From: Candidatus Electronema aureum
GTDB taxonomy: Bacteria; Desulfobacterota; Desulfobulbia; Desulfobulbales; Desulfobulbaceae
Direction: 5' to 3'
Assembly: GCA_004284765.1 (NCBI GenBank)
Contig: NQJD01000016.1
Coordinates: 22,597-54,596 of the forward strand
Length of the DNA stretch: 32,000 nt
Both the position numbers and the translations under genes were made by a program. The notes under the pieces were generated by a model, which worked only from the letters and a program-made list of their open reading frames with translations, did no database searches and had not been told where the DNA came from. Positions 1,589 through 32,000 of this stretch are shown piece by piece. How positions within the stretch are numbered: the stretch's first letter is position 1; every line of letters begins with the position of its first letter.

Positions 1589-1673
1589 GCATGGGCTTTC
1601 TTTGAAACATCAGTAGCTTTATGGTATAAGGCCCTGAGTAGCTTAGTAATGCATCCTGTTTTTTCAATAGACA

Positions 1674-11943: not shown

Positions 11944-12906
11944 ATGCAGTTCGTAAAAGAAAAGGCCGGGGTAGTGGTCTGGCAGCAAGGGTCGGGCAAG
12001 GAACCGCTAGTGCTCTTGGTCAGCTCGCGCAAAAACAAGGGCGCGTGGGTTTTTCCAGTAGGCAGCGTAGAGCCGGGCGAGTCCTTGCCCGAAGCTGCTG
12101 CACGGGAATGCCTTGAGGAGTCAGGCTCTTGCGTCAGAATCGGCCCGCATTTAGCGGCAGTTGAAGCTCCTAACGCAGGTGGCATTCACTCGCGCTTTAC
12201 CTTTTATCTGGCTGAAGTCAGCAGTGAAACCGAAACTTGGGAGCAGGACAGAAGCAGAATCTGGGTGCCGCTTTCTGAAGCCATAAGCCTCCTGCCTGAT
12301 ATTTTTAAAGATGTGGCCCGTGAGGCCCAGCAAAGGATAAAGAGCATGAACAACGCAGATGAACGGCAGCGGCTTAAAGAGCTGCTTTTGGCGAAATCTT
12401 ACCGCAAAGGTACTTTCACCCTTACTTCGGGTAAAACCTCGGATTTCTACATTGATGGGAAGCAAACCACCTTGGATGCCGAAGGCGGCTGGCTCTGCGG
12501 TCGGCTGCTTTTTGAACTCATCCGACAAGCTCCACAGCCGATCAGCGGCGTGGGCGGCATGACTCTCGGTGCTGATCCGTTAGTGACGGCGGTATCCATT
12601 GCCAGTTATCTCGCAGGCAATCCGATTCCCGCCTTCATTGTTCGCAAAGAGGCCAAAGGGCACGGTACCGGCAATTATTTAGAAGGAAAGAATAATCTTC
12701 ATCCCGGCTGCTCTGTGGCTCTGTTGGAGGACGTAGTCACGACCGGCGGCACTTTGCTCAAGGTGATTGAGCGGGTGGAGAAGGAGGGTTTTCGGGTGGG
12801 AATGGTATTGACCGTGATCGACCGCGATGAAGGCGGTGCAGAGGTGCTGGCCCAAGCAGGCTATCCGCTGCATAGCGTGTTCACCCGAACACAGCTCATC
12901 GGCTGA
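11944..12906 (+). CDS. pyrE: Nudix hydrolase fused to orotate phosphoribosyltransferase
   Basis: AAGGAG RBS upstream. The N-terminal ~135 aa carry a full Nudix box, GSVEPGESLPEAAARECLEESGS. The C-terminal ~180 aa is PyrE-like (FTLTSGKTSDFYIDG, FIVRKEAKGHGT, PRPP loop VALLEDVVTTGGTLL). Confidence 0.8.
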   Translation: MQFVKEKAGVVVWQQGSGKEPLVLLVSSRKNKGAWVFPVGSVEPGESLPEAAARECLEESGSCVRIGPHLAAVEAPNAGGIHSRFTFYLAEVSSETETWEQDRSRIWVPLSEAISLLPDIFKDVAREAQQRIKSMNNADERQRLKELLLAKSYRKGTFTLTSGKTSDFYIDGKQTTLDAEGGWLCGRLLFELIRQAPQPISGVGGMTLGADPLVTAVSIASYLAGNPIPAFIVRKEAKGHGTGNYLEGKNNLHPGCSVALLEDVVTTGGTLLKVIERVEKEGFRVGMVLTVIDRDEGGAEVLAQAGYPLHSVFTRTQLIG

Positions 12907-16177: not shown

Positions 16178-17998
16178 TTATTTTTCTGACCTTATTATAT
16201 AAATTTTCTGAAGCAGCTCCTGTATTAACCCGTCATCTCCGTTCTGAATAGCCCGCTGGAGTAGTTGCTGGAGTTCGGCTCCGTCCTGCTGTTTTTGGGC
16301 TTTGCGGAGCCAAGCGAGCAACTCGCCGCAGAGTGCTTGGCCTTGCTCTTCGTCGTTCCCTGCTACATCGTCAGAACCTTGACGAAGCAAATCAGCAACG
16401 TGCTGCCGCTCCTGACTACCGGACAACACCGAAAGCAGCAGCTCCGGCATAAACGATCCCTCAGCAGTCAATTGCTGCATAGCTGCGACTACAGTTTGCA
16501 CGGTTGGTACGCAGCCGCGCACGTAATCCAGCAAGCCACCCTGAATCAGCTCGTTGAAATGCTCTGGGTACAGCACCAAAAAACTGAGCAACCGCTGCTG
16601 CTTGGGTGGAAGAGGAACAAAGGTTTCGTGGATAGGCTCATGGTCGAAGACCGGCATATCTTCCGGCAACGGCGGTAATTCCTGCACTTCCGCTTTGGCC
16701 TGTGGTAGAGGAGTACCGGGCAGTAGCTGGCCCAATGAAACTCCTAATTTGCTTCCAAAATGCGCGGCTATCAGCTCGCGTTGGGCCTGATCAGGTGACT
16801 GTTTGACTAAATCAGTCAGCTCGGCCATGATTTTACTTTTGCCAGAGAGCGTGAGGCCATGTTCTTGTGCCAAAGCAGAAAAAACGAATTCCGGCAGTGG
16901 CGCGGCAGTATTTACCAGCTCTTGAATACCTGCCGCTCCTTTTTCCCGCACCAAAGAATCTGGGTCGTGGCCTTGCGGGAGTAGAGCTACTTTAGCCTCT
17001 AACTGCTCGTTGAGAAAGAAAGGAATGGAGCGGCGGGCGGCCTTCAAGCCAGCAGAATCGCCATCAAAAAGCAGCACCACTTCGCTGCAATAACTGCGCA
17101 ACGTGCGAACATGCTCTTTGGTCAATGCGGTACCTAACGGCGCAACCGCATTACTGATGCCATGTACCGCCAGCAAAAGTAGGTCAAAATTGCCTTCAAC
17201 CACGATAGCCCGGCGACTTTTGCGGATGGCTTCCCGATGCTGATGCAGGCCAAAGAGAATGCGGCTTTTTTCAAAGATCAGGCTTTCCGGCGAATTCATG
17301 TACTTAGGCTGGCCCTCGCCAAGTATTCTGCCCCCGAATGCTGCGGTTTTACCGCTCAGATCAAGGATGGGAAACATTACTCGGTCGCGGAAGCGGTCAT
17401 ACCAGCGATTTTTGTCTTTTCGCACGATCAGCCCGGATTGTTCCACCAGCTCTGCCGGAAACTTAACTATCAGCTGCGAGGTAATAAAATCCCATTGCGC
17501 TGGGGCATAACCGAGCTGATATTGCTCAACGAAGTCTGGGGGCACTCCCCGCTGGCGTAGATACTGCCGGGCCGCCTCGGCTTGCGGTGCTTTGAGCAGG
17601 TATTCATGAAAAAGTTGGGCCGCCGCCTCGTTGACTTGATGCAGCAATTCTCGCTGCCGCCGCCGTTCCTGTTCCGCCTCGTTCAGCTTGCGCTCAGGCA
17701 GACTGATCTGATAGCGGCGAGCTAAATCTTTCAATGCTTCGGGAAAACTCAAATTCTGATATTTCATCAGAAAGTCGAAAACGTCCCCGCTCTCACCGCA
17801 GCCGAAGCACTTAAAAAACTGAAACTGCCCTTGAGGATTGACAGAAAACGAAGGTGTTTTTTCGCCATGAAAAGGACAGAGGCCACTAAATCGGTTGCCT
17901 GCCCTCTTCAGCTGGACATGCTCACCGATTATTTGCACGATGTCGGCGGCCTCGCGTACCCGGTTTATCGCCTCATCCCAGGAGTCGCTGAATGTCAT
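16178..17998 (-). CDS. dnaG: DNA primase
   Basis: Zinc finger CPFHGEKTPSFSVNP..FKCFGCGESGD, followed by RNA polymerase and TOPRIM regions (VVEGNFDLL, LLFDGDSAG). I place the start at ATG 17998 (MTFSDSWDEAINRV...), not the TTG at 18085 in the track. Confidence 0.9.
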   Translation of the reverse strand: MTFSDSWDEAINRVREAADIVQIIGEHVQLKRAGNRFSGLCPFHGEKTPSFSVNPQGQFQFFKCFGCGESGDVFDFLMKYQNLSFPEALKDLARRYQISLPERKLNEAEQERRRQRELLHQVNEAAAQLFHEYLLKAPQAEAARQYLRQRGVPPDFVEQYQLGYAPAQWDFITSQLIVKFPAELVEQSGLIVRKDKNRWYDRFRDRVMFPILDLSGKTAAFGGRILGEGQPKYMNSPESLIFEKSRILFGLHQHREAIRKSRRAIVVEGNFDLLLLAVHGISNAVAPLGTALTKEHVRTLRSYCSEVVLLFDGDSAGLKAARRSIPFFLNEQLEAKVALLPQGHDPDSLVREKGAAGIQELVNTAAPLPEFVFSALAQEHGLTLSGKSKIMAELTDLVKQSPDQAQRELIAAHFGSKLGVSLGQLLPGTPLPQAKAEVQELPPLPEDMPVFDHEPIHETFVPLPPKQQRLLSFLVLYPEHFNELIQGGLLDYVRGCVPTVQTVVAAMQQLTAEGSFMPELLLSVLSGSQERQHVADLLRQGSDDVAGNDEEQGQALCGELLAWLRKAQKQQDGAELQQLLQRAIQNGDDGLIQELLQKIYIIRSEK

Positions 17999-18306: not shown

Positions 18307-19221
18307 ATGGAATACTTTCTTCAAAATTTGATCAACGCCCTCCAGTGGGGCAGCTTCTATGCCGTTATTTCCATTGGCTACTCGATGGTTTATGGTGTGC
18401 TGATGCTATTCAACTTCGCGCACGGCGATATCTTCATGACTGGCACGTACATTGGCTTCGGTATTGCCACGCTGCTGCTGGCTCTGTGCGGCACAGTCAT
18501 GCCGGGCTGGGTGATTTTCCTGCTCACCGTGCTGATCACCATGTTTCTTACCGCGTGGCTCGGTGTTTTGGTTGAAGTAGTGGGTTATCGGCCTCTGCGC
18601 CATGCGCCGCGAGCCTCTGCCGCCATCACTGGCCTGATGATCGGCATCATCTTGGAGACCAGCAACCTGATCATTCTTGGCACTAAGCGCCTGAGTTTCC
18701 CAGCCCTGATCGAATCAACAACGTGGCATGTCGGCGGGGTTTATTTGACCAATGTCAAGGTGCTGATCATCGCGGTTTCGCTCATGTTAATGCTCGGACT
18801 ACACACCTTCATTCAGAAAAGCCGCTGGGGTATGGCGATGCGAGCGATGTCCTATGAATTCCACGCCGTGCCGCTAATGGGCATTTCGGTCAATGTGTTG
18901 GCCCCGCTGACCTTTGCCATTGGCGCAGGGTTAGCTTCGGTGGCCGGCATTCTGTACGGTCAGGCCTATCCGGTGCTTGATCCGCACATGGGCGTTTTGC
19001 TCGGCTGGAAGGCGTTTGTGGCCGCCATTCTCGGCGGACGCGGTTCAATTATGGGCGCGGCTTTGGCTGGGTATTTGCTCGGCGCGATTGAGATATTTAC
19101 CGCAATGGTCTTTCCCTCCACCTTCCGCGATTTGATTGCGTATTCGATCATTCTGGTGATCTTAACCTTTCGGCCACGTGGCTTTTTCGGCATGGCGCAC
19201 AGCACGCAGCTCAGGCTCTAA
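18307..19221 (+). CDS. livH: branched-chain amino-acid (HAAT family) ABC transporter permease, LivH-like
   Basis: N-terminus FLQNLINALQWGSFYAVISIGYSMVYGVLMLFNFAHGD, then AMRAMS... and GGRGSIMGAALAG, typical of LivH/BraD. Confidence 0.85.
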   Translation: MEYFLQNLINALQWGSFYAVISIGYSMVYGVLMLFNFAHGDIFMTGTYIGFGIATLLLALCGTVMPGWVIFLLTVLITMFLTAWLGVLVEVVGYRPLRHAPRASAAITGLMIGIILETSNLIILGTKRLSFPALIESTTWHVGGVYLTNVKVLIIAVSLMLMLGLHTFIQKSRWGMAMRAMSYEFHAVPLMGISVNVLAPLTFAIGAGLASVAGILYGQAYPVLDPHMGVLLGWKAFVAAILGGRGSIMGAALAGYLLGAIEIFTAMVFPSTFRDLIAYSIILVILTFRPRGFFGMAHSTQLRL

Positions 19222-19560
19222 GGAGAACACCTGTAGCGGATGCGACCATGATCACGGTACAGCCAGACAATCGGCAGCAGTCTTTTTTTTGCGCAGACCT
19301 TGCTGGGGCAAAAGGTTCCGGCGGCACGGTGCGAGTAAGAGGAAACAGTGCGGCGGCTGAATGTCCAGTAGGGAATGTGCTTTGATCTCTTCTGGATTTC
19401 AGCAGCGGCAGGGTGTAGGAATCCTTTCGTTCTGGCAGCTATCAGCGATTTTTGGGATTCTCTCGGCGATCTTTTCGGAGTGCGAGGGGATGATTTAACC
19501 TATTCAGGCCGTGTAGAGGTAAATTTAGCAAGTATTTTGACTTAGTCAACCGGAGGAATC

Positions 19561-20250
19561 ATGTCAAAAAAGCATACCAGCAATGAGTTGATATCTAACT
19601 TTCCAGACTGGAACAATTTAATTGATAAATATATTTATGTTGAATGTCAAGTAGAACAAATGGGAGATGATCTGAAAATAGATATCAATAATATGCTTGC
19701 AGATATTATTTTTCACTTTGCATCTTGTGTAAAAGTTAAAGATGGGTGGGAAATTGCGACATCTACGTCTCATGGCAGATTTTCTTTGTTTTCTTTAGTT
19801 AGATCAAAAAAACTATGCACTGAGATTAGGTTTGGTATTGATCAAGATGAATTTTACATGACTTCAAATTTTGCAGCTGCACCATATCTCAAAAACATGG
19901 ATGATGCCTTTTGGGTTGATATGTTAAGTCTCTTGAGTCTTGGAAGATTCGAATTTATAGAAGATGCCGCCCCTCAAATGAACAAAAAGAGTGAGGCGGA
20001 TAAAATCATGCGACATAACAAGAGTCAACTATTCAGGTTGATCAGGAATTACTTATTTCTTGAGATCACAGAAGGAGATACGGCAGATTTAGGTAAAATA
20101 GAATTATATTGGCCGATTAAAACACCGTTGCTTACAATATTACAAAATGGAGCGACAGCGTTCGAAAAAATATATCGAATCAATTATGCGCTATATCGAG
20201 CAGAATACTTGTGTTTCCGCAATGAAGTTAGGAAGAGCCAAAATAGATAG
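19561..20250 (+). CDS. AT-rich orphan protein (229 aa) inserted between livH and livM
   Basis: GGAGG lies 4 nt before the ATG. A clean 229-codon ORF sits in strongly AT-rich DNA, where random ORFs of this length are unlikely. No motif recognised. GC is visibly far below that of the flanking liv genes. Confidence 0.65.
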   Translation: MSKKHTSNELISNFPDWNNLIDKYIYVECQVEQMGDDLKIDINNMLADIIFHFASCVKVKDGWEIATSTSHGRFSLFSLVRSKKLCTEIRFGIDQDEFYMTSNFAAAPYLKNMDDAFWVDMLSLLSLGRFEFIEDAAPQMNKKSEADKIMRHNKSQLFRLIRNYLFLEITEGDTADLGKIELYWPIKTPLLTILQNGATAFEKIYRINYALYRAEYLCFRNEVRKSQNR

Positions 20251-20304
20251 AAACGCATATCTGCTCACCGTACTTATAGACCAAGAACCCATTAGTCTCA
20301 ACTC

Positions 20305-21582
20305 ATGCACCTACTCCGCAAACTCCTGAACCTCTTCTCCCCCATCCCGCTCTCTGGCTGGCTCCTCGGTGCCTTTGCAGCGGTGCTACTGGAATATTAC
20401 CTCGGCGATGCGATTTCCTATTACCTCTATCTGCCCAAGATACCGGTGCTTTTCGGCACGCTGGTGGTGCTGAAAAGCCCGCAGCTCATTCCCGGCGTGA
20501 TCGGCTATGACCTGCTGATTTACATCCTGCCCATCCTGCTGGTCGCCCGGCTTTCTGCGCCATTGACCAACCGCATCGCCGCGCTGCTGGAGAAGCTGCC
20601 GACTTGGGCCGCCACGCTGCTGCATCTGGCCGCCTTCTACGGCATCCTCCACCTCTGGGCGGGCATCAGCGACTACCGGGTGCTGGTGGTCAAGCTGATC
20701 CTCATCTCGATCATCCTCACCCTCAGCCTGAACATCATCAACGGCTGGCAGGGCGAGTTTTCCTGCTCGCATCCGGGCTTCATGGCCTTGGGCGCATACA
20801 CCTCGTCCTTCCTCACCCTCCGCCTGTTCAGCGGCAGCCATGCCTTGCTCAGTCCTGCCCTCGGCCCGTGGCTCTTCCCGCTGATTCTCATCGCAGGAGG
20901 TGCCGCTGCTGCGCTCGGCTCGCTGATTGTCGCCATCCCCTCCTTCCGCACCCGTGGCGACTACTTAGCCGTCATCTCGTTAGCCTTCATGTTTATGGTC
21001 AAGAGCGCGATTGAGAACATGGAGTTCCTCGGCGGGCCGCGTGGTCTGAGCAGTCAGCCCGACTACTCCTCCCTGCCGGTGATCTTCGCGTGGACAAGCC
21101 TCTGTATCTGGATGGTGCACAACTTCACCACGTCCATCATGGGCAAGGCCCTGAACGCGGTGCGCGACAACGAGGCCGCAGCCAGCTCAATGACCGTCAA
21201 CACCCGCAAGACCAAGATGACCGCCTTCATGTTCGGCGCATTCTGGGCAGGCGTGGCAGGCGGCCTCTTCGCGCATGTGCTGCGCTACATCAATCCGGGC
21301 AGCTTCGGCATTCAGAACTTGGCCGAGATGCTGGCAATGGTCTATTTCGGCGGCCTAAACTCGATAGCCGGGTCTATCCTTGGCGCGGTCAGCATCAGCG
21401 TTCTCAGCGAAGCCCTGAAGCCGCTGGAGCTGTTCAAGTGGATCATCATCCCCCTAATGCTGATTTTGATCATGATCTACCGCCCGCATGGCCTGATTGC
21501 CTTCACCGAGCTGAATGTCAGGAAGCTGATGCGGGCGAGGAAGCGGGGCGGTGCAGATAATAACCCAAGAGGGACGACATGA
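20305..21582 (+). CDS. livM: branched-chain amino-acid ABC transporter permease, LivM-like
   Basis: 425 aa with a long N-terminal membrane extension, as in LivM. Motifs include NIINGWQGEFSCSHPGFMALGAY and AVRDNEAAASSMTVNTRKTK. Confidence 0.85.
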   Translation: MHLLRKLLNLFSPIPLSGWLLGAFAAVLLEYYLGDAISYYLYLPKIPVLFGTLVVLKSPQLIPGVIGYDLLIYILPILLVARLSAPLTNRIAALLEKLPTWAATLLHLAAFYGILHLWAGISDYRVLVVKLILISIILTLSLNIINGWQGEFSCSHPGFMALGAYTSSFLTLRLFSGSHALLSPALGPWLFPLILIAGGAAAALGSLIVAIPSFRTRGDYLAVISLAFMFMVKSAIENMEFLGGPRGLSSQPDYSSLPVIFAWTSLCIWMVHNFTTSIMGKALNAVRDNEAAASSMTVNTRKTKMTAFMFGAFWAGVAGGLFAHVLRYINPGSFGIQNLAEMLAMVYFGGLNSIAGSILGAVSISVLSEALKPLELFKWIIIPLMLILIMIYRPHGLIAFTELNVRKLMRARKRGGADNNPRGTT

Positions 21583-21764
21583 AATCAACGAGCAAGATCA
21601 GTGCGCCTGAAGCCTTTTACCGTCTCTTTCAAGCATTGCCTGCGAAAGAGCGTTTTGCTGCGGCCAAGTATATATTGGAAGACGAGCAGGTGCGTCATCA
21701 CTTCAAGATCCCGAATGAGATGACCGAACTCATGGAGCCTGAAGATGAAGACGACAACCAGTGA
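21579..21764 (+). CDS. small hypothetical protein (61 aa, acidic C-terminus)
   Basis: The ATG overlaps the livM stop (ATGA). It overlaps the next small ORF by 20 nt. No motif recognised. Confidence 0.4.
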   Translation: MKSTSKISAPEAFYRLFQALPAKERFAAAKYILEDEQVRHHFKIPNEMTELMEPEDEDDNQ

Positions 21765-21933
21765 TCCCATTGTGGATGAAGTGCGCAAGGCGCGTCACGA
21801 TCATGCGGCGCAGCTCGGCTATGACATCAAAGCAATATTCCGCAGCATCAGGGCGCAGCAGCAGTCTTCCGACCGTCAGTATGTGCATTATCCTGCCCGG
21901 CGTGCGGCGGAGGCAGCTTCAGCCCGCTCATAG
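21745..21933 (+). CDS. small conserved-looking hypothetical protein (62 aa)
   Basis: DPIVDEVRKARHDHAAQLGYDIKAIFRSIRAQQQSSDRQYVHYP resembles a widespread small-protein family I recall only as hypothetical. Function unknown. Confidence 0.45.
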   Translation: MKTTTSDPIVDEVRKARHDHAAQLGYDIKAIFRSIRAQQQSSDRQYVHYPARRAAEAASARS

Positions 21934-22080
21934 TTCACCGCCGCTGCTCCAGGTCTGGCTTGACTAAGCAGCGGATGTTCACTCAGTTCTCGCCGAAGAG
22001 TCTCTGCATACAGGACGCGCGCGGACAGATGTCAATTCTTCGAGGCGCAGCTCGATCACCAAATCCACCAGGCAGCGCAT

Positions 22081-24884
22081 ATGCAGCTTCACACTTTTAA
22101 TTCGACATGGAAGGACTGCACCAAAGATTTCTTTCGCATTAAAGAGTATCGTTTCCCTGATGACCTCTGGATGTGCGAAGGCGCGGCGCGGGTTACCGCC
22201 GAAAATCCATTCGCAGTCAGCGGCAGGGAGAAGGTGACTGTCCATCTCATCACGGCAGGAAAATATCGGGAAGGGCAGCTGTATATCTGGACTCCGGGCC
22301 GCGCGGGCCGCTTTGTCTCGTCAAGCAAGGAAGACGAGCATGGGCCTATCTATGATGTTGTTTTGAAAGCGTCGGAGCGTAACCTGTTCCTTTTCAAATT
22401 CTTGGACAAGCATGGCACGTTTGAGCCTGATTACGCCAATCGCCTCTGGGTCGCGCAGGACGGCGGGGAGATATGGGCGCACAGTCAGGCTGCAGCTGTC
22501 AGCATTGCCGCGCCTGTCAAGAAACCGCTGATCGTCTATGTCCTCCAAACAGGTGCCCAGGTGCCTCCGCATCTGCATCTGTGGCAGAACGATTCTGATT
22601 TCGTCACCACCATCGAGGAAAGCGAGCCGTGCCAAGACGGCTGGGCGCGGTTCACGCATGATATATACACCGGGCGCGAGTACTGCTTCATGCTGCGCAG
22701 CCCGGATCTGCCGGGCGAGTGGGAGAGCAAGGAGGCTGAACGGAACATCCTTCTGGATGCGGATGGCGGGCATTGCACCTTTGCCGGCGACAGTGCCAGA
22801 CGCAAACTGGGCAAGGAAGGTGTCTGGACATTGGAAGGAGATAACCAACTGTTCGGCAGGCAGCCGTTTGCAGACAAAAAGATTTGCCTTGAGATTGCGG
22901 CCAGAGACTCCGGCTGCACGCTGGAAACGCCCTTGTTCTTGGATGTCTGGATCAACAGGGCGCGCACGCAACTGCACACCGGACTGACAGCCGACGCGGA
23001 CGGGCACTATCGCTTCCAAACCTTCCCGGAAGTGATCACATCATTCTCGTTCCGCTCTGACAACGCCGCCGAGCAGATAGAACGTCACTGCCTCAAGGCA
23101 GCGGATGATGCAAGCGAGATGCATTGCTATGTGGTGCTGGATCGCGCGGATGTTCTGCCAATGCAGCCTCCGGCTGATCTTTTCAGCAATCCGCCCTTCG
23201 ACATCGAACGGCCAGGCGTGTGGGTTGCCGACGACCATCTCCGCTTTGCTCTGCACTGCCCCAAGGCCGCCGCAGTCGAAGTGGTCGGCGACTGGACCGG
23301 CTGGCAGGATTCGCCGCTGCCCATGCGCTCGACCCTCGACGGCACCTATTGGTGGGCGCAGGTGCCGGTCGCGGATGTCACTGCCGCGCTTGGCGGCTCC
23401 TTTCATGGGGAACGCTACAAGTTCCGGCTTAATCAGGCGCGCTTGGTGCAGGATCCGGCTGCCGACTGGGTGGACAACTCAGATCTGAGCAGTGCCTCAA
23501 GGCTGGTGGATCATCAGGCGTTTGCTTGGCAGGCAGCTGATTGGCAGCGGCCCGGCTGGGAATCTCTCAACATCTACCAGCTTCATCCATCAAGGTTCAG
23601 CAGCCGCGACGGGCAGCACGGTCTTGATGCTGTGACGCGCGAGATGACCGCCCCTGACGGCTATCTCCGCAAGGTCAAGGCGACAGCCGTGCTGCTGATG
23701 CCCACCTGCGAGTTTGCCGGAGACGACAGCTGGGGCTACAATCCTTCGTTCTTCTACTCAGTTGAGTCTGCCTATGGCGGCCCGGACGCGCTCAAGCGGC
23801 TGGTCGATGCCTGTCACCAGCAGGGCAAGGCGGTGCTGATGGATGTGATCTTCAACCATGCCTCGGCTTCAGACAACGTGCTGTGGAGTGTCGCCCCTGA
23901 GAGCTTCTTTGACGGCGACACGGACTGGGGGCCGATGATCAACTTCGACCATCCCCAGGTGCTTCACTTCTTTGAACGCAACTTGACGCACTTCATGCGG
24001 AACTACAGGATCGACGGCTTCCGCTTTGATTTCACCCGCGTTGTCCGCTTCGGCGATCAATGGATAGCCCATGTCAAGCAGCCAGGCTCCGGCGGCGGCT
24101 GGGGCTTCATGCAGCGGCTTCGCGAAGCGGTCCGCCAGGTTGACGGACGCTGCCTGATGATGGCCGAGAACTTGCCCAATGACTGGGATCTCACCTATAA
24201 CAGCGGCCCGATGGACACGCAATGGTGCGATGATTTCCATGACCGCATGGTGGATGCGTGCAGAGGCTGGGACATGATGAACCGCTTGGCGGATGCTGTG
24301 CAGATGACGCACACGGCCTGCACCCGCTGGCATGAGGCAACCAACTATGCCGAGAGTCACGACGAGGTGGGCAATGAGCCGAACCGCATCAGCTCTGTGG
24401 CCGGGCCTGGCCAAGGACTGCGGCGGAGCAAGGTGGCAAGTGCCGCAACGCTCCTGAGCCGGGGCATTCCGCTTTCCTTCATGGGTGCGGAAACGGGCGA
24501 GTGGCGGCAGTTTCACAAGGATGGCGAGCAAGCACTCGATCTCAACTATTATGAACAGGACGGCGCAGCCTGTTGTTTGCGGAACTGGTGGAACCGGCTC
24601 TCCGAGATTCGCCGCAGCAATCCGCGTCTTGAGGGGCCTTCACGCGCGGCGAGGCCAACGATCTGTTCATCCTCCTGAACTTCAGCGGCTGGTCTGGCTG
24701 GCGTTCGCTCGCGGAGCTTAATCTGCCTGATGGGGAGTACAAGGAGCTGCTGAATTCAACCTGGGGAGACTACCGGGTTGAGTGGGAAGACGAACACTCC
24801 AACGGCGGCTGGGATGCTCACATGCACCGTGGCCACTGGTTGAATATCCCCGATTACGGAGTCGTGATGCTGGAGAAACGTTGA
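22081..24884 (+). pseudogene. GH13 alpha-amylase-family enzyme (branching-enzyme/TreZ-like, with a CBM48-like module), frameshifted near its 3' end
   Basis: The four GH13 regions are VLMDVIFNHAS, IDGFRFDFTR, MMAENL and YAESHDEV. A CBM48/E-set-like segment is LRFALHCPKAAAVEVVGDWTGW. The main frame stops at 24678. The expected C-terminal beta-domain (AFTRGEANDLFILLNFSGW...YGVVMLEKR) continues in another frame from 24633 to the stop at 24882-24884. The shift must lie near the GAGGGGCC run at 24631-24638. Confidence 0.75.
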
Positions 24885-24994
24885 TTGGACGTGAAGAGAA
24901 TGGGAGCAGCTCATATGTGGCATCCGCAAAGGTGATCTTTGCGGAAGGTTGCACAACCTCAGCGCATCACCGACAAGGTGAAGGAAGAATATCT

Positions 24995-26011
24995 ATGAAT
25001 CCAGAATTGCTGCCAGACTATTCCACAGAAGGCGAAGAGCAGATCATCAAGGAAATGATCAAGCTGACCATTGGCCTGATGGAGGAATCGCCAGACGGCT
25101 GCCCGCTGCGGGTCCAGCACGCCAAGGCCACGGCCTGTGTCAGAGCAACATTCGAGATTGCTGCGGATATTCCAGCCAGTCTCCGCTATGGGGTGTTCAG
25201 CCAGCCAGGCCGGGTCTTTGAGGCCATTGTCCGCTTCTCCAATGCCCAAGGCACAATCACGCCCGATGGCGACCGAACCGCCAGAGGCTTGGCCATTAAG
25301 CTACTCAATGTTCCTGGGCAGCGGGCAATGGCCAGCGACACGGACAGCAGCCAAGATTTCCTCTTCGTGGATCATCCTGTCTTTCCCTTTCCGAACGCGG
25401 CAGAATACCGGGATGTGATTAAGCACAAGAGCGTGCCGCTGATCGGCGATCTTCTTGCCCTTGCCCATCTTCAGCTCTTTGAACCTGAGCAGCTCAAGAT
25501 CATCAAGGAGATCAGAAAGAAGAGTGTGACCAGCCCCCTCAGCATCACCTACTGGAGCGGTGTGCCGTACTGGCTTGGCGACGCTGCCAGCACGGCAGGG
25601 CAGGCTGTGAAGTATATAGCCGTGCCGCCTGTGCTTGCCGCAGGGCCTGCTGATCCAGAAGAGCTGCCGCCAGACTACCTGAGAGAGGCCGTTGCCAAGC
25701 AGCTTGCTGCCAGCGAAGCCGTCTTTGACTTCAAGGTGCAGAAGCAGGGGGATCCGCTGAAGATGCCGATTGAGAATGCCTCGGTGTATTGGGACGAGCA
25801 GCAGTCAGTGCCTGTTACAGTCGCGACCTTGCGCATCAGCAAGCAGGCGGTCAACAGCAACAGCGAACTGGAGCAGCGTTGCGAAGGAATGTTCTTCAAC
25901 CCGTGGCACGCGCTCAAGGAGCATCGTCCGCTGGGCAGCCTCAACCGTCTGCGCAAGGCAGTGTATGAGGCCAGCTTTGCCGAGCGTGAACGGCGGAAGA
26001 AGGCCTGTTGA
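24995..26011 (+). CDS. catalase-related haem protein (small catalase-like family, 338 aa)
   Basis: ATG at 24995 with GAAGGAAG upstream. Distal-His motif RVQHAK..C.....F, then VRFSNAQG, and proximal-Tyr motif RKAVYEASFAER, as in catalase-fold proteins. The track ORF start at 24782 overlaps the GH13 tail and is rejected. Confidence 0.7.
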   Translation: MNPELLPDYSTEGEEQIIKEMIKLTIGLMEESPDGCPLRVQHAKATACVRATFEIAADIPASLRYGVFSQPGRVFEAIVRFSNAQGTITPDGDRTARGLAIKLLNVPGQRAMASDTDSSQDFLFVDHPVFPFPNAAEYRDVIKHKSVPLIGDLLALAHLQLFEPEQLKIIKEIRKKSVTSPLSITYWSGVPYWLGDAASTAGQAVKYIAVPPVLAAGPADPEELPPDYLREAVAKQLAASEAVFDFKVQKQGDPLKMPIENASVYWDEQQSVPVTVATLRISKQAVNSNSELEQRCEGMFFNPWHALKEHRPLGSLNRLRKAVYEASFAERERRKKAC

Positions 26012-26082
26012 TCACGGAGCTGCAAAGAAAGTGAGCGGCGTTGGTGCTGTGCTGCTGGCAAGGAAGCGGAGCGAAATTTTTC

Positions 26083-26175
26083 AGCGCGATGCTCAAGCCG
26101 CTGGAGCTGTTCAAGTGGATTGCCTTCACGAAGCTGAATGTCAGGAAGCTGATGCGGGCGAAGAAGGGGGGATAA
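26083..26175 (+). pseudogene. remnant of a livM 3' end (second, decayed copy)
   Basis: 26095-26120 is identical to 21418-21443, and 26121-26171 matches 21498-21548 at 47/51. It reads ..LKPLELFKWI/AFTKLNVRKLMRAKKGG* in the livM frame, lacking the 54 nt (18 codons) found at 21444-21497. The ORF track shows the same out-of-frame peptide, AAGAVQVD...AECQEADAGEE, at both places. Confidence 0.8.
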
Positions 26176-26207
26176 CGTAGAGTAAATTTTTTGCACTTTG
26201 ATGAAGA

Positions 26208-26323
26208 TAGGAGTTACGCAGTTGAAATGAGAAATTCAGCTATTACAGATAGTTGTCTTTTTGCCGCCTAAGTCGTCAGTTGAATAAAATCAACTGGTTG
26301 GCGGTCGAACTGCGTAACTCCTA
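26208..26323 (+). mobile_element. 116-bp element with terminal inverted repeats, copy B (MITE-like; a structured RNA is not excluded)
   Basis: Same length, termini and hairpins as 1674-1789. It is flanked by TA on both sides. It lies 32 nt after the livM-remnant stop and 66 nt before the start of the AT-rich 310-aa ORF. Confidence 0.7.
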
Positions 26324-26389
26324 GAAGAATTGCTGCAAACTGGCAATGCAAGTTACATCTGCTTAATTTTAAGCTACATGGAGTCAGTA

Positions 26390-27322
26390 ATGAATCAAAA
26401 TAAAAAAATATTCACTCAAGAATCAGGTGATAATCTTTATATGGATATTCGGAGCGGCACAGATGAACTTTGTTGTGATGCCGTTATATCATGCAAAAAT
26501 GCCAAAGAATTTGTAATCAAGCTTTGGCAAGATTCGGGAAAATTTCTTGATCCAAAATTTCCAGATAAACTTGCCAGTCGATTTCATCAGCATTTTTGGG
26601 AGCTTTATTTGGCAGCTACACTTCATGATGTTGGATTTCCTCTTGTTGAACAAAAGAAAGAAGAGGGACCAGACATTCTTTTGTGCAATAATAGTCAATG
26701 CGTATGGGTAGAAGCAATAGCTGTCACAGCAGGGGATGGCAATGACGCAGTGCCAGCAAATGTATGCGGTCAAGCCAGCCCCGTGCCTGATGAGCAAATC
26801 AGACTTCGCCTAACAAGTGCGTTTAAAGAGAAATTTGAAAAATATCAAAAGTACATAACCAATGGTATTGTTAGCGATAATGATCAATTTATCATAGCGA
26901 TTAATGCAGCTATAGTGCCTTCTGCGCGCTTAGAGCGAGAGTTGCCTTTTATAGTAAGATGTTTGCTTCCGTTCGGTCACGAATTGTTGGAAATTAATCA
27001 ACAAACAATGAAAGCAGTCAACAGAACTCATACATATCAAGGCGAGATAAATAAAAAATCTGGTACAAAAATCCCTGTAACAATATTCCAGCAAGAAAAA
27101 TATGAAGGTATATCTGCTGTTATCTATTCGTGTTCCGATGTGTCGTACAACAATGTTATTTTGGGAGACGATATAGTCGTTGTCCATAATCCATTAGCTC
27201 GCAACCAATTGCCTCACGATTTTATAAAGCGCGGTTCTGAATTTTTTGTCAATTGTCAATTACAATTAGAGCGTATAGAGTACAGATCAATGCCCCAGCA
27301 GGAGTTGTCTGATGCTACTTGA
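26390..27322 (+). CDS. AT-rich orphan protein (310 aa), possible PD-(D/E)xK-like nuclease fold, inserted between the livM remnant and livG
   Basis: I prefer ATG 26390 (GGAG 6 nt upstream) to the track start at 26330. FWELYLAATLHDVGF..EEGPDILLCNNSQCVWVEAIAV has the E..PD..(hydrophobic)xE spacing of restriction-endonuclease-like cores, but no clear Lys. Its last 11 nt overlap the livG start. Confidence 0.6.
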   Translation: MNQNKKIFTQESGDNLYMDIRSGTDELCCDAVISCKNAKEFVIKLWQDSGKFLDPKFPDKLASRFHQHFWELYLAATLHDVGFPLVEQKKEEGPDILLCNNSQCVWVEAIAVTAGDGNDAVPANVCGQASPVPDEQIRLRLTSAFKEKFEKYQKYITNGIVSDNDQFIIAINAAIVPSARLERELPFIVRCLLPFGHELLEINQQTMKAVNRTHTYQGEINKKSGTKIPVTIFQQEKYEGISAVIYSCSDVSYNNVILGDDIVVVHNPLARNQLPHDFIKRGSEFFVNCQLQLERIEYRSMPQQELSDAT

Positions 27323-28079
27323 AGTCAAAAACATGTCCCACTACTTCGGCGGCCTGCGGGCGGTCAACGGCTTCAATCTCCGCATTGAGCCGGGCCAGAT
27401 TCATGGACTGATCGGCCCGAACGGCGCAGGCAAGACCACGGTCTTCAACCTGATCACCGGGGTGCATGTGCCGACCGAAGGCGAGGTGCTGCTGGAAGGC
27501 ACGAACATTCGCGGCTTTGAGACGCACCGCATCGCCGCGCTCGGCATTGGCCGCACCTTTCAGAACCTGCTGCTCTGGCGGCACCTGAGCGTGCTCGATC
27601 ACATCCGCATGGCCCATTACAGCCAACTGCGCTACGGCATCTTCGGGGCCTTATTTGCCACGCCTGCCTGCCGCCGTCAGGAAAAGGAGATTGAGGAGCA
27701 GTCGCGCCGCCTGCTGGAGACCTTTGACATCAGCCGCTTTGCTGATCAGCTTGTCGGCAGCCTGCCTTATGGCGCGCAGCGGCGGGTGGAGATGGCGCGG
27801 GCAATGGCCACTCGTCCGAAGGTGCTCTTTCTCGACGAACCCACCGCAGGCATGACCCCGGACGAGCTGGTGCGGATGATTGAGATTATTCGGCAAGTGC
27901 ATCGGGAATTCGGCGTGGCGATCCTGCTGATTGAACACCGGATGAAGTTTGTCATGGAGCTGTGCGACAGCGTGCAAGTGCTGGTCTTTGGTGAGGTGAT
28001 CGCGGCTGGCCCGCCTGCTGCGATTCAGAATAATCCCCAAGTGATTGAAGCCTATCTCGGCAAGGAGGACATCCACTGA
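27312..28079 (+). CDS. livG: branched-chain amino-acid ABC transporter ATP-binding protein, LivG-like
   Basis: [18 protein letters not shown], Walker [10 protein letters not shown], signature [14 protein letters not shown] and Walker B VLFLDEP. GGAG lies 8 nt upstream. Confidence 0.9.
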
Positions 28080-28792
28080 TGCAGCTCATTGTGGAGAATC
28101 TCTCCGTCTCGTATGGCAATATCCGCGCCTTGCACGGCCTCAGCTTTCGGGTGGATCAGGGCGAGATTGTCACCATCATCGGGGCGAACGGCGCGGGCAA
28201 GAGCACAGCCCTGCGGGCCATCTCCCGCATGATTCCAGCGGAGCCGGGTTCGCGGCTGGAGTTCATGGGCGAGAACCTGCTCAAATACAAGACCGACAAG
28301 GTGGTTTCCCGGCTCGGTATCTCGCACGTACCCGAAGGCCGGATGATCTTTGGCAACCTGACTGTGGCGGAGAATCTCAGCCTTGCCGCCTTTGCCCGCA
28401 AAGACAAGGCCGCAGTGGCCAAGGACGAGCAGTGGGTCTTTGATCTCTTCCCCCGTCTGCGCGAGCGGCGCAATCAGCTCGCAGGCACGATGAGCGGCGG
28501 CGAGCAGCAGATGCTCGCTGTTGGCCGCGCCTACATCAGCGGCAGGAAAATCATGCTGCTCGACGAGCCGTCCATGGGCCTCGCGCCCCTGCTGATGCTG
28601 GACATGTTCGCGGCCTTGAAGGAGATCAACCGCACAGGCACCACCATCCTGCTGGTCGAGCAGAACGCCCGCCTTGCCCTCAAATTCGCCATGCGCGGCT
28701 ATGTCTTAGAGAATGGCAGACTGGTGCTGGAGGGAAAGGCGGCTGATCTGCTCAACGATCCGGCGGTGAAGCGGGCGTATCTGGGGGCGTGA
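28079..28792 (+). CDS. livF: branched-chain amino-acid ABC transporter ATP-binding protein, LivF-like
   Basis: Walker A GANGAGKST, signature MSGGEQQMLAVGRA and Walker B IMLLDEPS. The ATG overlaps the livG stop by 1 nt (TGATG). Confidence 0.9.
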   Translation: MQLIVENLSVSYGNIRALHGLSFRVDQGEIVTIIGANGAGKSTALRAISRMIPAEPGSRLEFMGENLLKYKTDKVVSRLGISHVPEGRMIFGNLTVAENLSLAAFARKDKAAVAKDEQWVFDLFPRLRERRNQLAGTMSGGEQQMLAVGRAYISGRKIMLLDEPSMGLAPLLMLDMFAALKEINRTGTTILLVEQNARLALKFAMRGYVLENGRLVLEGKAADLLNDPAVKRAYLGA

Positions 28793-28834
28793 GATCAATG
28801 GCTTCTTTTGCCAACCACGTAACTCATAGTCATC

Positions 28835-31594
28835 ATGATTGAAACCTTGCTGATCAGCTGGGGAATAAAAACTGCGTGGTCGGCTTTTGGCCCGGTGTTG
28901 GAAGATTTGGCGCAAGATGTCGCCAAGGACTCAGCGAAAAGCTACATAGGCAAATGCTTCGGCAGCGTGTTTTCCTCGAAGAACGAAAAAGTGCTGGTTA
29001 AGGCGACTGGCCAAGCAATCAAAGAGCTGCTTGATTTGTTGGAATACGAGCTGGGCCTTGATGAAGACACTCAGCGCGAAGAGTTGATTCAAGCGCAGCG
29101 GGCGGTGTCCGCGTTTCTCAAGCAGCCGGAAGTGACTGATTCCATCACCGCGCTGCTGCAAGGAGAACAGCTTGACCCCGCTGCTCTCGCCCAAGCATGG
29201 CAGCAAGTGCCGGACGCGCCACCATTGCCGGACGATTTTTCGTGGCAGCGGATCAGCAAACGCTTCAGCCGCAAGGCCGGGGAAATCCGCGACAGCATCC
29301 CGGAGCTGAAGGCGGTTTTCGCGCAGAACGTAGCGGTCAAAGCGGACGAAGCCCTTGCAAGCAGCATCGGCCCGCAGCCGGATTTTGATCTTGATGTGTA
29401 TGCCAAGGCGTTGGAGGAGCGTTTCGGCAGGCTGAATCTTGACTGCTTGGACACTGACGGCGCGTCCTACAACGCCGTCCGCCTCTGGAGCGTGTTCGTG
29501 CCGCAGTCGGTGCGGGAATGCGAGAAGTTTCAGCCCCGGCATCTCGAACAGCCCAAAGGCGACGAGGAGCGGCAGGAGCAGCTGCGGCCTTATTTCGAGC
29601 AGCCGCTGCGCCCGGTTTTGGAAGTCTGCGCTGACCAGCAGCTGCAACGGCTGGTAATTCTTGGTGATCCCGGCTCCGGCAAATCAACTCTGCTCCGCTG
29701 CTTGGCTTTGGAATGGGCGCGGGATGAGGACGCGAACCGCCGGGCGACCGCGCCGCTGCCGCTGCTGATTGAGCTGCGCGCCTACAACCAGTGGGAATGC
29801 TCCAGCGGCAAGAGCTTCATCGCCTATCTGCACCATGCGCAGAACTGGCACCGCCTCAATCAGAACGCCCTTGATGCCCTGCTGCACAGGCCGGGCCGCG
29901 TCCTGCTCCTTTTGGACGGCCTCGACGAAATCTTTGATCCGCAGCAGCGCGAGCTGGCGGTCAACGACATCTTCCGCTTCAGCAACGATTACCCCAATGC
30001 CCGGATTATCCTCACCTCGCGGGTGGTCGGCTACAAGCCGGAGCGGCTGCGCGATGCCGGGTTCCACCACTTCATGCTGCAAGATTTTGACGCGGGCCAG
30101 ATCGAGGAATTTCTCAAGCTCTGGCACCAGATCACTTTCACCTTCAGTGACCAGGAGGAGGCGGAGCGCAAGCGGCAGCGGCTGGCCAAGGCGGTCGCCG
30201 ACTCGCGGCCCATCAAGCTGCTGGCGGGCAATCCGCTCCTGCTCACCCTGATGGCGATCATCAACCGCAAGGAGGAGCTGCCCCGCAACCGGGCGCGGCT
30301 CTACGAAAAGGCGGCGGAGCTGCTCTTGCAGCAGTGGGACACCGAAGCGAAACTTCTGCTTGATTTTCCCAGTCTGAGCGAGGAGATTGATCTGCGGGCC
30401 AAGGCGGCGATACTCCGCAAAGTGGCTCTCGAAATGCAGACCGCCGGGAGCGAAGCTGCCAACCTGATTCAGGGCGAGAAGCTCATCAAGCTGATTGAGG
30501 AATATCTGCTGACCGAGCTGCGCTTTCCGCAAGCCCGCAAAGCTGCCAACGCCTTGGTTGAACAACTGCGCCAGCGCAATTTCATCCTCTGCTTTCTTGG
30601 CGGCGACAGCTACGGCTTTGTTCACCGCACCTTTCTGGAATATTTCTGCGCGGCTGAGTTTGTTGATCAGTTCAAGGAGCGGCAGACGCTGAAGATTGAC
30701 GGCCTGCTTGCGCTCTATGATCAGCATTGCCGTGAGGACGACTGGCAGGAGGTGCTGCGTCTGATATGCGGGCAGATTGATGAGTCATTTGCCGGGAAGA
30801 TTATTGAGCATTTGACTGGGCTGGTGGATTTGGAGAAGGATCAAAAAGCATCGCTGCCGGAGTTGCTGCTGGCGGTGTGGTGTTTGAGCGAGGTGAAGAA
30901 TCTGAATAAGATTGATGAGCTGACAGGAGGAAAGTTGTTGTTGAAGACAATTGACTGTTTTTTGCAAAACGAAGATACAGATACTGGTTATGAGCTATAT
31001 CAACGAATTGAAACTATTGGTGCAAACTGGCCGGGAAAATCTGCATTCCACTTTAACGGACAAATCCCAAGAGATAAATTCTACCAAACTATATGGCCTT
31101 ATTTTTTAGCAATTATCTTTCAGCAACGTCAGTGGATTGAGCAGCTTTGTCATGTAAACTCTGGGGATGTCCGCAGCAATGCGCTGAGGTATCTGGCTAC
31201 TTGCTGGCCAGATAAGGATATCCGGCAGCTCTGCCGACAGGCTGTAGATGATGAGCATGAAAATGTCCGCAGCAATGCGCTGAATCTGCTGGTCGCGTAT
31301 TGGCCAAATAAAGAAATTTTTCAGCTACTCAAACAATCTATCTCAGTGGCTGGTATAGCAGCATCTCGGCACGGCAAAGAGTATTCCCACTTTGGTGAAA
31401 TTGTATTTAGGCGTTTTCCAGAGTTTGATTCACAATATTTTCTCAATCCACGCCAGCCCATTCCCGCCAAGCACATCCAAAAAGCCGCAGAAGAAGCCGG
31501 TATTCCCCCGGACAAAATAGACGAGGCCGTGCGTTCGCTTTCAGCGCACATGGGCTGGGACATCACCAAGGGCAGCTTGGCCGGGAAGCTGTAG
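28835..31594 (+). CDS. STAND NTPase of the NACHT type with C-terminal HEAT-like repeats (bacterial NLR-like protein); N-terminal ~276 aa unassigned
   Basis: Walker A GDPGSGKST (29663-29689), Walker B LLLLDGLDE (29900-29929), GNPLLLTLM and HRTFLEYFCAAEF. The C-terminal (D/N)VRSNAL units are 32 aa apart. Confidence 0.85.
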   Translation: MIETLLISWGIKTAWSAFGPVLEDLAQDVAKDSAKSYIGKCFGSVFSSKNEKVLVKATGQAIKELLDLLEYELGLDEDTQREELIQAQRAVSAFLKQPEVTDSITALLQGEQLDPAALAQAWQQVPDAPPLPDDFSWQRISKRFSRKAGEIRDSIPELKAVFAQNVAVKADEALASSIGPQPDFDLDVYAKALEERFGRLNLDCLDTDGASYNAVRLWSVFVPQSVRECEKFQPRHLEQPKGDEERQEQLRPYFEQPLRPVLEVCADQQLQRLVILGDPGSGKSTLLRCLALEWARDEDANRRATAPLPLLIELRAYNQWECSSGKSFIAYLHHAQNWHRLNQNALDALLHRPGRVLLLLDGLDEIFDPQQRELAVNDIFRFSNDYPNARIILTSRVVGYKPERLRDAGFHHFMLQDFDAGQIEEFLKLWHQITFTFSDQEEAERKRQRLAKAVADSRPIKLLAGNPLLLTLMAIINRKEELPRNRARLYEKAAELLLQQWDTEAKLLLDFPSLSEEIDLRAKAAILRKVALEMQTAGSEAANLIQGEKLIKLIEEYLLTELRFPQARKAANALVEQLRQRNFILCFLGGDSYGFVHRTFLEYFCAAEFVDQFKERQTLKIDGLLALYDQHCREDDWQEVLRLICGQIDESFAGKIIEHLTGLVDLEKDQKASLPELLLAVWCLSEVKNLNKIDELTGGKLLLKTIDCFLQNEDTDTGYELYQRIETIGANWPGKSAFHFNGQIPRDKFYQTIWPYFLAIIFQQRQWIEQLCHVNSGDVRSNALRYLATCWPDKDIRQLCRQAVDDEHENVRSNALNLLVAYWPNKEIFQLLKQSISVAGIAASRHGKEYSHFGEIVFRRFPEFDSQYFLNPRQPIPAKHIQKAAEEAGIPPDKIDEAVRSLSAHMGWDITKGSLAGKL

Positions 31595-31635
31595 CGGCGG
31601 GAAAATTTTCAGCCCGGTCAAAGCAGCATCGAATT

Positions 31636-31866
31636 TTGTTCGGCAAGAAAGGAGTGTTGTTAAACCGGCAAGGAGTTCTGTTCGGCAGCGAAGAAGCGTT
31701 GTTTAGCAGGGAAGGAGTTTTGTTCGGCAAAGAAGGAGTGCTGATTAACAGCAAAGGAGTTTTGTTAAACAACGAAGAAGCGTTGATTAACAAGAAAGAA
31801 ATATTGCTGATCAACAAAGAAGCGTGGTTCGTCAAGAAAGGAGTTTTGCTGAACCGCAAAGAAATG
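31636..31866 (+). repeat. eleven degenerate 21-bp tandem repeats (a twelfth, decayed unit runs to about 31887); reads as a heptad-repeat peptide in + frame 1
   Basis: Units start at 31636, 31657, 31678 ... 31846, with exact 21-nt phasing. The consensus is about TTG TTC GGC AAG AAA GGA GTT. It covers the track ORF 31636..31893 (LFGKKGV LLNRQGV LFGSEEA ...). There is no ATG and no SD. Confidence 0.85.
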
Positions 31867-31910
31867 CTATTCGATATAGCCAGAGCAACATAATTTGAAC
31901 CGTCGTATCT

Positions 31911-31981
31911 GTCATTTCGAGCGGAGCGAGAAATCTCACGCCAAGGACGAAGAGGAGATTCCTCGCTCCGCTCGGAATGAC
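31911..31981. repeat. long imperfect palindrome (27-bp arms, 17-nt loop), REP-like hairpin element
   Basis: GTCATTTCGAGCGGAGCGAGAAATCTC (31911-31937) pairs with GAGATTCCTCGCTCCGCTCGGAATGAC (31955-31981) at 25 of 27 positions. The exceptions are one G:T and one A:C. Confidence 0.75.
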
Positions 31982-32000
31982 ATTCAAGTTCACTTTATGC

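Follow-up and report, generated by a model that had tools for sequence, protein, structure and literature searches.

A NACHT protein with an N-terminal NNH2 domain encoded behind an interrupted liv operon in the cable bacterium Candidatus Electronema aureum

The gene analysed here occupies positions 28835 to 31594 of a 32,000-nt stretch of genomic DNA (contig NQJD01000016.1, positions 22,597 to 54,596; hereafter the window) from Candidatus Electronema aureum, a cable bacterium of the Desulfobulbaceae. It is a new member of a known and catalogued family of NACHT proteins, not a new class. On balance, and judged from sequence and predicted structure, its 919-aa product appears to be a STAND switch of the NLR type with the catalogued NNH2+NACHT+HEAT architecture and likely serves antiphage or other conflict defence in this cable bacterium, with the NNH2 domain as non-enzymatic output; we give this reading slightly better than even confidence. 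The main evidence is a full-length match of the N-terminus to NNH2, a NACHT module folded like that of animal NLRs in the predicted model, and a sensor region that is hypervariable among close orthologs.

Domain architecture and variation of the NNH2-NACHT-HEAT-like protein

A preliminary description of the window, made from the letters alone, had placed an open reading frame (ORF) with NACHT motifs at 28835-31594, and every motif cited there is found in the translation (Table 1). The Walker B motif is present as described, only its given start (29900) included one extra Val codon. A sequence search found a protein of Candidatus Electronema aureum, recorded as 'NACHT domain-containing protein', that is 100% identical to the product.

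The preliminary description had called residues 1-276 unassignable and possibly a new effector class. Neither view stands. Residues 25-207 match the Pfam family NNH2 over its full length (PF22734; 145.4 bits versus a cutoff of 27, model positions 1-181 of 181). The NNH names originate in Kibby et al., 'Bacterial NLR-related proteins protect against phage' (bioRxiv 10.1101/2022.07.19.500537), where Table S1 lists NNH2+NACHT+HEAT and NNH2+NACHT+HEAT_2 proteins in clades 2 and 3, among them TBR56486.1 of Westiellopsis prolifica and NET46618.1 of Okeania sp. The same table holds NNH2+NACHT+FGE-sulfatase and NNH2+NACHT+TCAD10 architectures. NNH is an abbreviation without assigned function in the main text of that study. 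A match of the N-terminus to an already described effector family had been named beforehand as an outcome that would count against the proposal; it was found in part, as far as the family name is concerned.

An exhaustive phmmer search with residues 1-205 against 1.84 billion representatives gave 210 clusters at E≤1e-3. Among the matches listed, NNH2 begins at residue 1-20 in nearly all of 150 representatives, and NACHT follows directly in ten of ten sampled NNH2 proteins (Pfam). In these sequences NNH2 is a helical domain specific to NACHT proteins and practically confined to their extreme N-terminus. A word-indexed homolog search with the same residues returned 13 short proteins that are apparently fragments and uninformative on architecture. 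Two stand-alone NNH2-only proteins are encoded on large contigs, P0128 (Electronema sp. V4, 144 aa) and P0130 (Electronema sp. PJ, 142 aa); in both, the sequence turns unrelated beyond ~135 aa, and they resemble NNH2-NACHT remnants left by truncation rather than independent adaptors.

Residues 1-276 were modelled with AlphaFold2 (AF2) from a 74-sequence alignment. The model (predicted local distance difference test score, pLDDT, 83, mostly >85 for residues 1-170) consists of alpha helices throughout, about ten of them up to residue 197; next come a flexible linker and a conserved pre-P-loop segment in which W218, F221, Q224 and K241 are invariant. The conserved columns of NNH2 are mainly hydrophobic or aromatic, no catalytic-looking constellation is seen among them, and a sequence search of residues 1-276 against the PDB found nothing. 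The first 24 residues follow the family consensus M-[LV]-[ED]-W-L-A-[VI]-W-G-V-x-A-x-W-x-V-F-R-P-I-L-E-D, and their best 19-aa Kyte-Doolittle mean is 1.05 (family median 1.22). A constitutive transmembrane anchor was considered for this segment and is excluded because its 19-aa hydrophobicity is too low. The earlier picture of a helical N-terminus with a hydrophobic start and without an enzymatic motif is upheld; the membrane disruption then attached to it is neither supported nor excluded.

The NACHT domain scores 64.6 bits against a curated cutoff of 26.7 in the Pfam profile search (PF05729), and Walker A, Walker B, the TSR motif, the GxP motif and the winged-helix His are invariant or nearly so in an alignment of 88 homologs. 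In the full-length AF2 model (pLDDT 84.9), the nucleotide-binding domain (NBD), helical domain 1 (HD1), winged-helix domain (WHD) and helical domain 2 (HD2) are found in this order, followed by helical repeats. The Foldseek matches of this model are NLRC4 (4kxf, 1.4e-11), NOD2 (5irm, 6e-11) and NLRP3 (8.6e-10), so that the NBD-HD1-WHD-HD2 fold resembles that of solved NLRs, as a predicted model and not a solved structure. A profile of 88 family members retrieved rabbit NOD2 from the PDB (2.8e-5), its matches being confined to the HEAT-like and NACHT parts. H597 and T599 appear to correspond to NLRC4 H443 and S445 by motif, not by residue-level alignment. The proposal of an NLR-like STAND/NACHT NTPase is thus borne out by the Pfam match above cutoff, the family profile and the Foldseek matches.

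The C-terminal sensor region ends in about 2.5 HEAT-like units of 32 aa, of the WPD type. PBS-type HEAT repeats had been proposed here, and their HEAT-like character is supported by helical hairpins in the AF2 model and by the match of the 88-member profile to designed HEAT-like alphaRep proteins in the PDB (1.3e-13). In the Pfam search HEAT_2 reaches 24.9-26 bits, just under its cutoff of 27.7, and HEAT_PBS gave no match. In relatives, HEAT_2 is well above cutoff and covers 4-14 stretches. Two VRSNAL units lie 32 aa apart (residues 779 and 811) and are encoded by identical 21-nt segments at 31167-31187 and 31263-31283, as had been noted. This 21-mer is the longest exact direct repeat of the gene. 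Since the value never exceeded 16 nt in 200 synonymous-codon shuffles of the same protein, the identity is not a by-product of the shared peptide; it points to a recent duplication or conversion between the two repeat units. The small C-terminal tail is 82-92% identical among close relatives. It scores 18.1 bits for PF24410 ('wHTH-Hsp90_Na associated'; cutoff 23), while two aligned relatives, P0022 with 28.7 bits and P0036 with 26.4 bits, exceed this cutoff.

In a codon-aligned comparison with Electronema orthologs (loci compared are designated by L numbers), the ATPase core (codons ~180-660) has a DNA identity of 0.91-0.97 (L001, L085, L086), the sensor (codons 660-840) of only 0.41-0.65 and the last 60 codons of 0.71-0.87. 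The first 60 codons exist in two allelic forms, with identities of 0.48 to L085/L086 and 0.80 to L001. The alleles at 28835-29014 of the window (MIETLLISWGIKTAWSAFGPVLEDLA...) and 6001-6180 of L085/L086 (MVSGVLTTLGIVTWTAFGQDLAQELV...) share 48% DNA identity, and the 600 codons that follow share 83-97%. The GC content at third codon positions (GC3) is 0.86-0.90 in the core of the window gene and ~0.41 in its sensor part, and it drops in the sensor region of all eight orthologs (0.26-0.5). A near-identical switch combined with a hypervariable sensor would be expected of an immune receptor, through diversifying pressure or frequent sensor exchange.

Close relatives (59-80% identity) are encoded in other Electronema and Electrothrix genomes, and distant ones (43-55%) in filamentous cyanobacteria, Thiolinea, Planctomycetota and Chloroflexota. 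Of the best 120 homologs (43-80% identity), about three quarters have both PF22734 and PF05729, most of them with PF13646 (HEAT_2). According to Kibby et al., genomes rich in NACHT paralogs belong preferentially to multicellular bacteria.

Table 1 Features of the NNH2-NACHT-HEAT-like gene, its surroundings and its orthologous loci (window positions unless a locus is named)
Feature	Position	Strand	Remarks
NNH2-NACHT-HEAT-like gene, complete	28835..31594	+	919 aa plus stop, ATG start
Extreme N-terminus, Trp/Gly-rich, conserved	28835..28906	+	aa 1-24, immediately before the NNH2 model of Pfam
NNH2 (NACHT N-terminal Helical domain 2)	28907..29455	+	aa 25-207; PF22734, E=2e-42
Flexible linker and conserved pre-P-loop segment RLWSVFVPQSVRE	29456..29647	+	aa 208-271
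NACHT nucleotide-binding domain	29648..30127	+	aa 272-431; PF05729, E=1.3e-17
Walker A GDPGSGKST	29663-29689	+	aa 277-285
Walker B LLLLDGLDE	29903-29929	+	aa 357-365
TSR sensor motif	within 29648..30127	+	aa 394-396
HD1, winged-helix domain and HD2	30128..30814	+	aa 432-660; AF2 model, Foldseek
GNPLLLTLM (GxP motif, HD1)	GNPLLL 30227-30253	+	aa 465-473
Winged-helix motif FVHRTFLEYF, HRTFLEYFCAAEF	30623-30661	+	HRTFLEYFCAAEF is aa 597-609
Hypervariable low-GC3 helical sensor region	30815..31384	+	aa 661-850; HEAT_2 below cutoff, alphaRep match
Small conserved C-terminal tail (…PRQPIPAKHIQKAAEEAGIPPDKIDEAVRSLSAHMGWDITKGSLAGKL)	31385..31594	+	aa 851-919 plus stop; PF24410-related
Degenerate palindrome GTAGCGGCGGGAAAATTTTCAGCCCGG	31595..31630	.	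immediately downstream of the stop codon
Eleven tandem 21-nt units, consensus GAGTTTTGTTCAACAAGAAAG	31631..31861	.	42-nt super-period
Homologous arrays	L004 10809-11040; L085 9744-10025; L086 11170-11451; L088 ~1560-1750		
229-aa orphan ORF between livH and livM	19561-20250	+	GC ~0.40, GC3 0.31
Low-GC inserted gene, 330 aa	26330..27322	+	PADLOC PD-T7-5 E=3.8e-20, PD-T7-1 E=1.7e-12
livG-like ABC ATPase	27312-28079	+	upstream neighbour
livF-like ABC ATPase	28079-28792	+	directly upstream neighbour
Spacer, livF-like stop to NACHT ATG	28793..28834	+	no Shine-Dalgarno-like run, no predicted terminator
Candidatus Electronema aureum (window, L089, L090)			livF-like gene upstream of NACHT
Electronema sp. 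V4 and two metagenomic relatives (L001, L004, L087)			cysS-Memo upstream
Electronema sp. JC and a relative (L085, L086)			purF-ferredoxin upstream
Electrothrix sp. Rat3 (L002)			ATP synthase operon and BrnA antitoxin upstream
Electrothrix communis (L003)			PMP-like gene upstream

Genomic context and the 3' end of the gene

As described before, the NACHT ATG lies 43 nt past the livF-like stop (28792) on the same strand, and no purine-rich Shine-Dalgarno (SD)-like run is seen upstream of it. Terminator prediction found no terminator-like site in the spacer, and with the 43-nt gap read-through transcription from liv is plausible. Homology with orthologs at other chromosomal sites starts at the NACHT ATG and not in the spacer.

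The gene order at 18307-28792 of the window is livH, the 229-aa orphan, livM, a GH13 amylase-like gene, a catalase-related gene, the 330-aa PD-T7-5-like gene, livG and livF. The orphan has no Pfam or PADLOC match. The 330-aa gene has a GC3 of 0.31 (livG and livF 0.76-0.82) and no Pfam match, overlaps the start of livG by 11 nt and lies 1.5 kb upstream of NACHT; by its PADLOC matches it is a candidate for a second phage-defence gene in the same islet. In the nearest relatives (Desulfopila sp. and other Desulfobulbales-like metagenome-assembled genomes, L005-L009), livHMGF is compact and free of these inserts. Because the liv operon is split by inserts, the NACHT gene is regarded as one of several accessory insertions in a variable islet, and judging from the compared sequences its position behind livF is an accident of insertion.

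The upstream neighbourhood is not conserved among the orthologs. Five different upstream neighbours are found (Table 1), always co-directional and separated by a short gap, and no neighbouring gene is conserved across eight orthologous loci. Several orthologs are immediately followed by VapBC, HigB or PIN toxin-antitoxin (TA) genes. Within 10 kb of the 80 liv loci compared from other taxa there is no NACHT homolog, and the gene is therefore no conserved syntenic partner of liv operons across taxa. Its description as appended to the liv operon is correct physically but, with five upstream neighbours and these 80 loci, not in a functional sense.

Further interrupted or acquired segments were seen in the compared sequences. 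Just beyond the window end (L089, 11287-17617), a second liv-like set with a permease (11287-12474) and a livG-like ATPase (16802-17617) is likewise interrupted. The inserts comprise a VapBC/PIN pair and two stand-alone PBS-type HEAT-repeat proteins (154 and 675 aa), the units of which are of the VRxxAAxALGxLGD type, unlike the WPD-type units of the NACHT protein. In Electrothrix sp. Rat3 (L002, 5157-6445), two unannotated ORFs of 201 and 192 aa between the ATP synthase gamma and beta genes are further accessory genes inside housekeeping operons of cable bacteria. Near the start of the window, the segment 3500-7000 has a GC content of 0.43-0.47 versus ~0.53 around it and may be another acquired segment; it encodes two META-domain proteins (4460-4972 and 5027-5782) and holds two ORFs without Pfam or PADLOC match (3633-4190; 5858-7033, minus strand).

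A palindrome with a GC stem and an AT loop, e.g. GTAGGGGCAGTTCGCGAACTGCCCCTAC, encloses the NACHT stop codon. The palindrome behind the stop codon is degenerate in the window, and clean GC-stem/AT-loop forms are found at the same place in NACHT orthologs. Integron attC sites seem an unlikely explanation for these palindromes, as their core departs from GTTRRRY and an integrase was not seen. The tandem array that follows is 78-88% identical beside NACHT orthologs at other chromosomal sites, and the homology between the window and L004 spans from the ATG to about 31870. In L004, the array directly follows the NACHT stop codon. In L085 and L086 it lies 1.0 and 2.4 kb downstream, with TA-type genes inserted ahead of it and, immediately before the array, a leftover copy of the final 20-35 nt of the NACHT gene; in L088 another such remnant of the NACHT 3' end lies behind the array, with VapBC next to it. 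Since remnants of the last 20-70 nt of the gene flank inserted TA genes, the NACHT 3' end is suggested to be a recurrent insertion or recombination site. These palindromes and remnants lie at 31590-31625 of the window, at 8758-8783, 9027-9052 and ~9700-9745 of L085, at ~11150-11170 of L086 and at ~1414-1480 of L088.

The array itself is probably non-coding. Read in the open plus-strand frame, four of its seven invariant columns are third codon positions, and a small heptad-repeat protein gene is unlikely given the lack of an ATG and SD and about 7 synonymous to 22 non-synonymous differences from L004 (counted by eye). A role as CsrA- or SD-sponge RNA was discarded, because the AAGGAG motifs are not conserved in L004 and an Rfam search of the array gave no match. 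Downstream of the array, an imperfect 80-nt palindrome (GTCATTTCGAGCGGAGCGAGAAATCTC ... GAGATTCCTCGCTCCGCTCGGAATGAC, 31905-31987) looks like a repetitive extragenic palindromic (REP) or miniature inverted-repeat transposable element (MITE); its only Rfam match, a miRNA model at 25 bits versus a cutoff of 69, is attributed to chance.

Proposed mechanism and alternative explanations

The mechanism proposed for the protein is derived from established knowledge of NLRs and bacterial NACHT proteins (Kibby et al.). In the resting state, the C-terminal solenoid and the winged-helix residue His597 would hold the ATPase closed and ADP-bound. When a phage-derived molecule, or a host molecule altered by infection, binds the variable solenoid, this would relieve autoinhibition and open the protein, and ATP-dependent oligomerisation would then cluster the NNH2 domains, which as a non-enzymatic output may stop the growth of the infected cell or kill it. 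The gene may need read-through from liv for its expression. The reading of NNH2 as an output module is supported by its constant position ahead of NACHT, its pairing with HEAT, FGE-sulfatase and TCAD10 sensors and its mostly hydrophobic or aromatic conserved positions. As a sub-hypothesis, the free Trp/Gly-rich N-terminal segment could be released on activation and perturb the membrane, comparable to CC-NLR and HeLo proteins; by analogy this is a weak suggestion, given about a quarter of the confidence placed in the reading as a whole.

The best precedent is bNACHT16 (NNH1+NACHT+LRR), a protein without an enzymatic domain in which mutation of the winged-helix His or Thr stops growth of E. coli (Kibby et al.); proteins of this design thus carry a toxic output. 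Changes equivalent to NLRC4 H443/S445 were used for both bNACHT16 and bNACHT25. bNACHT16 shares with the present protein a helical 'NNH' N-terminus without enzymatic signature and a C-terminal repeat sensor, but its NNH1 domain is another Pfam family (with no NNH1 match here), its repeats are LRR and not HEAT-like, and it belongs to another clade. The catalogued NNH2+NACHT+HEAT proteins have the same three parts in the same order, in many cases with the PF24410 tail; the protein described here differs from them in its occurrence in a cable bacterium, its ~2.5 repeat units and its AT-rich, divergent sensor segment. The likeness to the animal NLRs NLRC4, NOD2 and NLRP3 comprises the superposed NBD-HD1-WHD-HD2 part of the predicted model (Foldseek E 1e-11 to 1e-9), the Walker A/B, GxP and WHD His logic and a C-terminal solenoid as sensor and autoinhibitor. 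Sequence identity is only 13-16%, however, and the animal proteins have LRR instead of HEAT-like repeats, CARD, PYD or BIR instead of NNH2, and a downstream caspase pathway for which the bacterial protein has no counterpart. With the CC-NLR ZAR1, fungal HeLo proteins and MLKL there is a functional analogy only, namely that an NLR which oligomerises carries a helical, non-enzymatic N-terminal domain whose conserved, hydrophobic first residues have to be free. Neither in sequence nor by Foldseek is NNH2 similar to them, and with ~200 aa and ~10 helices it is not a four-helix bundle. Avs proteins share the tripartite effector-NTPase-sensor logic and are single-gene systems in defence islands, but they belong to other STAND clades and usually have enzymatic effectors and TPR-like sensors.

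Several observations weigh against the defence reading or parts of it. The best PADLOC match of the NACHT protein, PDC-S60 (4.5e-7), is partial and limited to the NACHT region, and the NCBIfam match to EruA is partial as well, with 41 bits versus a cutoff of 1000. Because these matches are weak and partial, the protein is placed outside all validated defence families; the PADLOC check proposed in the preliminary description matched no validated defence-system model, and no Avs model is among the PADLOC matches at E≤1. The proposed Foldseek comparison of the NNH2 model likewise gave no significant neighbour in the PDB (best E 0.33, TM-score ≤0.25) or BFVD (best E 0.24), and CC, HeLo and MLKL bundles are not among its top matches. 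As there is no structural neighbour, the membrane idea is left with a moderately hydrophobic N-terminus as its basis, the hydrophobicity of which is below the transmembrane range. The HEAT array is unusually short compared with that of relatives. To our knowledge, cable bacteria are not genetically tractable, and we know of no phage or ligand. A literature search found no paper meaningfully linking cable bacteria and NACHT. Among the 27 genes tested by Kibby et al., the legend of Figure S3 names NNH1 and not NNH2.

A less probable but serious alternative is that NNH2 is a scaffold, adaptor or autoinhibitory domain and that, once the protein has oligomerised, a host factor encoded elsewhere is recruited or activated or the protein signals without killing. 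Its well-packed, confidently modelled soluble helical bundle, with neither a catalytic constellation nor a structural match to any known effector, is in line with this, and Kibby et al. class non-catalytic N-termini of bacterial NACHT proteins as possible 'adaptors'. Adaptors of the EAD or Death type should recur on separate effectors, however, whereas NNH2 was found only N-terminal to NACHT in the ten sampled proteins; the short NNH2 matches resemble fragments or truncated copies, and a constant neighbour gene is missing from the eight orthologous loci. Rather unlikely in our view is a non-immune STAND regulator that would control programmed cell death or differentiation in the filament or sense an endogenous metabolite. 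It would explain the concentration of the family in filamentous or multicellular bacteria (cable bacteria, filamentous cyanobacteria, Thiolinea, Chloroflexota) and the lack of a match to a validated defence family, and the highly conserved C-terminal tail suggests a constant endogenous partner. An arms race fits better with a sensor that is hypervariable between very close orthologs with cores 91-97% identical, and the variable chromosomal position near TA modules and the PD-T7-5-like gene also speaks for conflict defence rather than regulation.

A functional partnership with the liv transporter, in which a co-regulated protein would act on or sense transport, could be suspected from the shared strand, the short distance to livF and the terminator-free spacer. 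It is contradicted by orthologs at 59-79% identity that follow cysS-Memo, purF-ferredoxin, ATP synthase or PMP-like genes, by the liv loci of other taxa and the compact livHMGF of the nearest relatives, and by a liv operon that is riddled with insertions here; comparison of the ortholog neighbours and the 80 liv loci effectively rules it out. Going beyond the NLR-type defence switch preferred here, a bolder conjecture combines two elements: NNH2 as a non-enzymatic executioner whose free N-terminus attacks the membrane, an unrelated-fold counterpart of CC-NLR and HeLo domains, and the NACHT gene with its 3' palindrome and array as a promoterless cassette that lands at the 3' ends of housekeeping operons and offers its own 3' end as a landing pad for TA cassettes. 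We regard this combination as speculative and improbable, slightly more so than the non-immune regulator.

The assignment of the N-terminal domain to a named Pfam family within a catalogued architecture corrects its over-reading as a new effector class. NNH2-NACHT proteins form a large family that is common in multicellular bacteria and lacks an enzymatic effector, and an understanding of NNH2 would reveal the means by which a widespread class of bacterial NLRs produces its output. Modular NLR evolution has a clean natural example in the Electronema orthologs, in which a near-identical ATPase core is combined with a swapped or hypervariable sensor and two N-terminal alleles, and their loci illustrate how defence genes colonise the ends and interiors of housekeeping operons.

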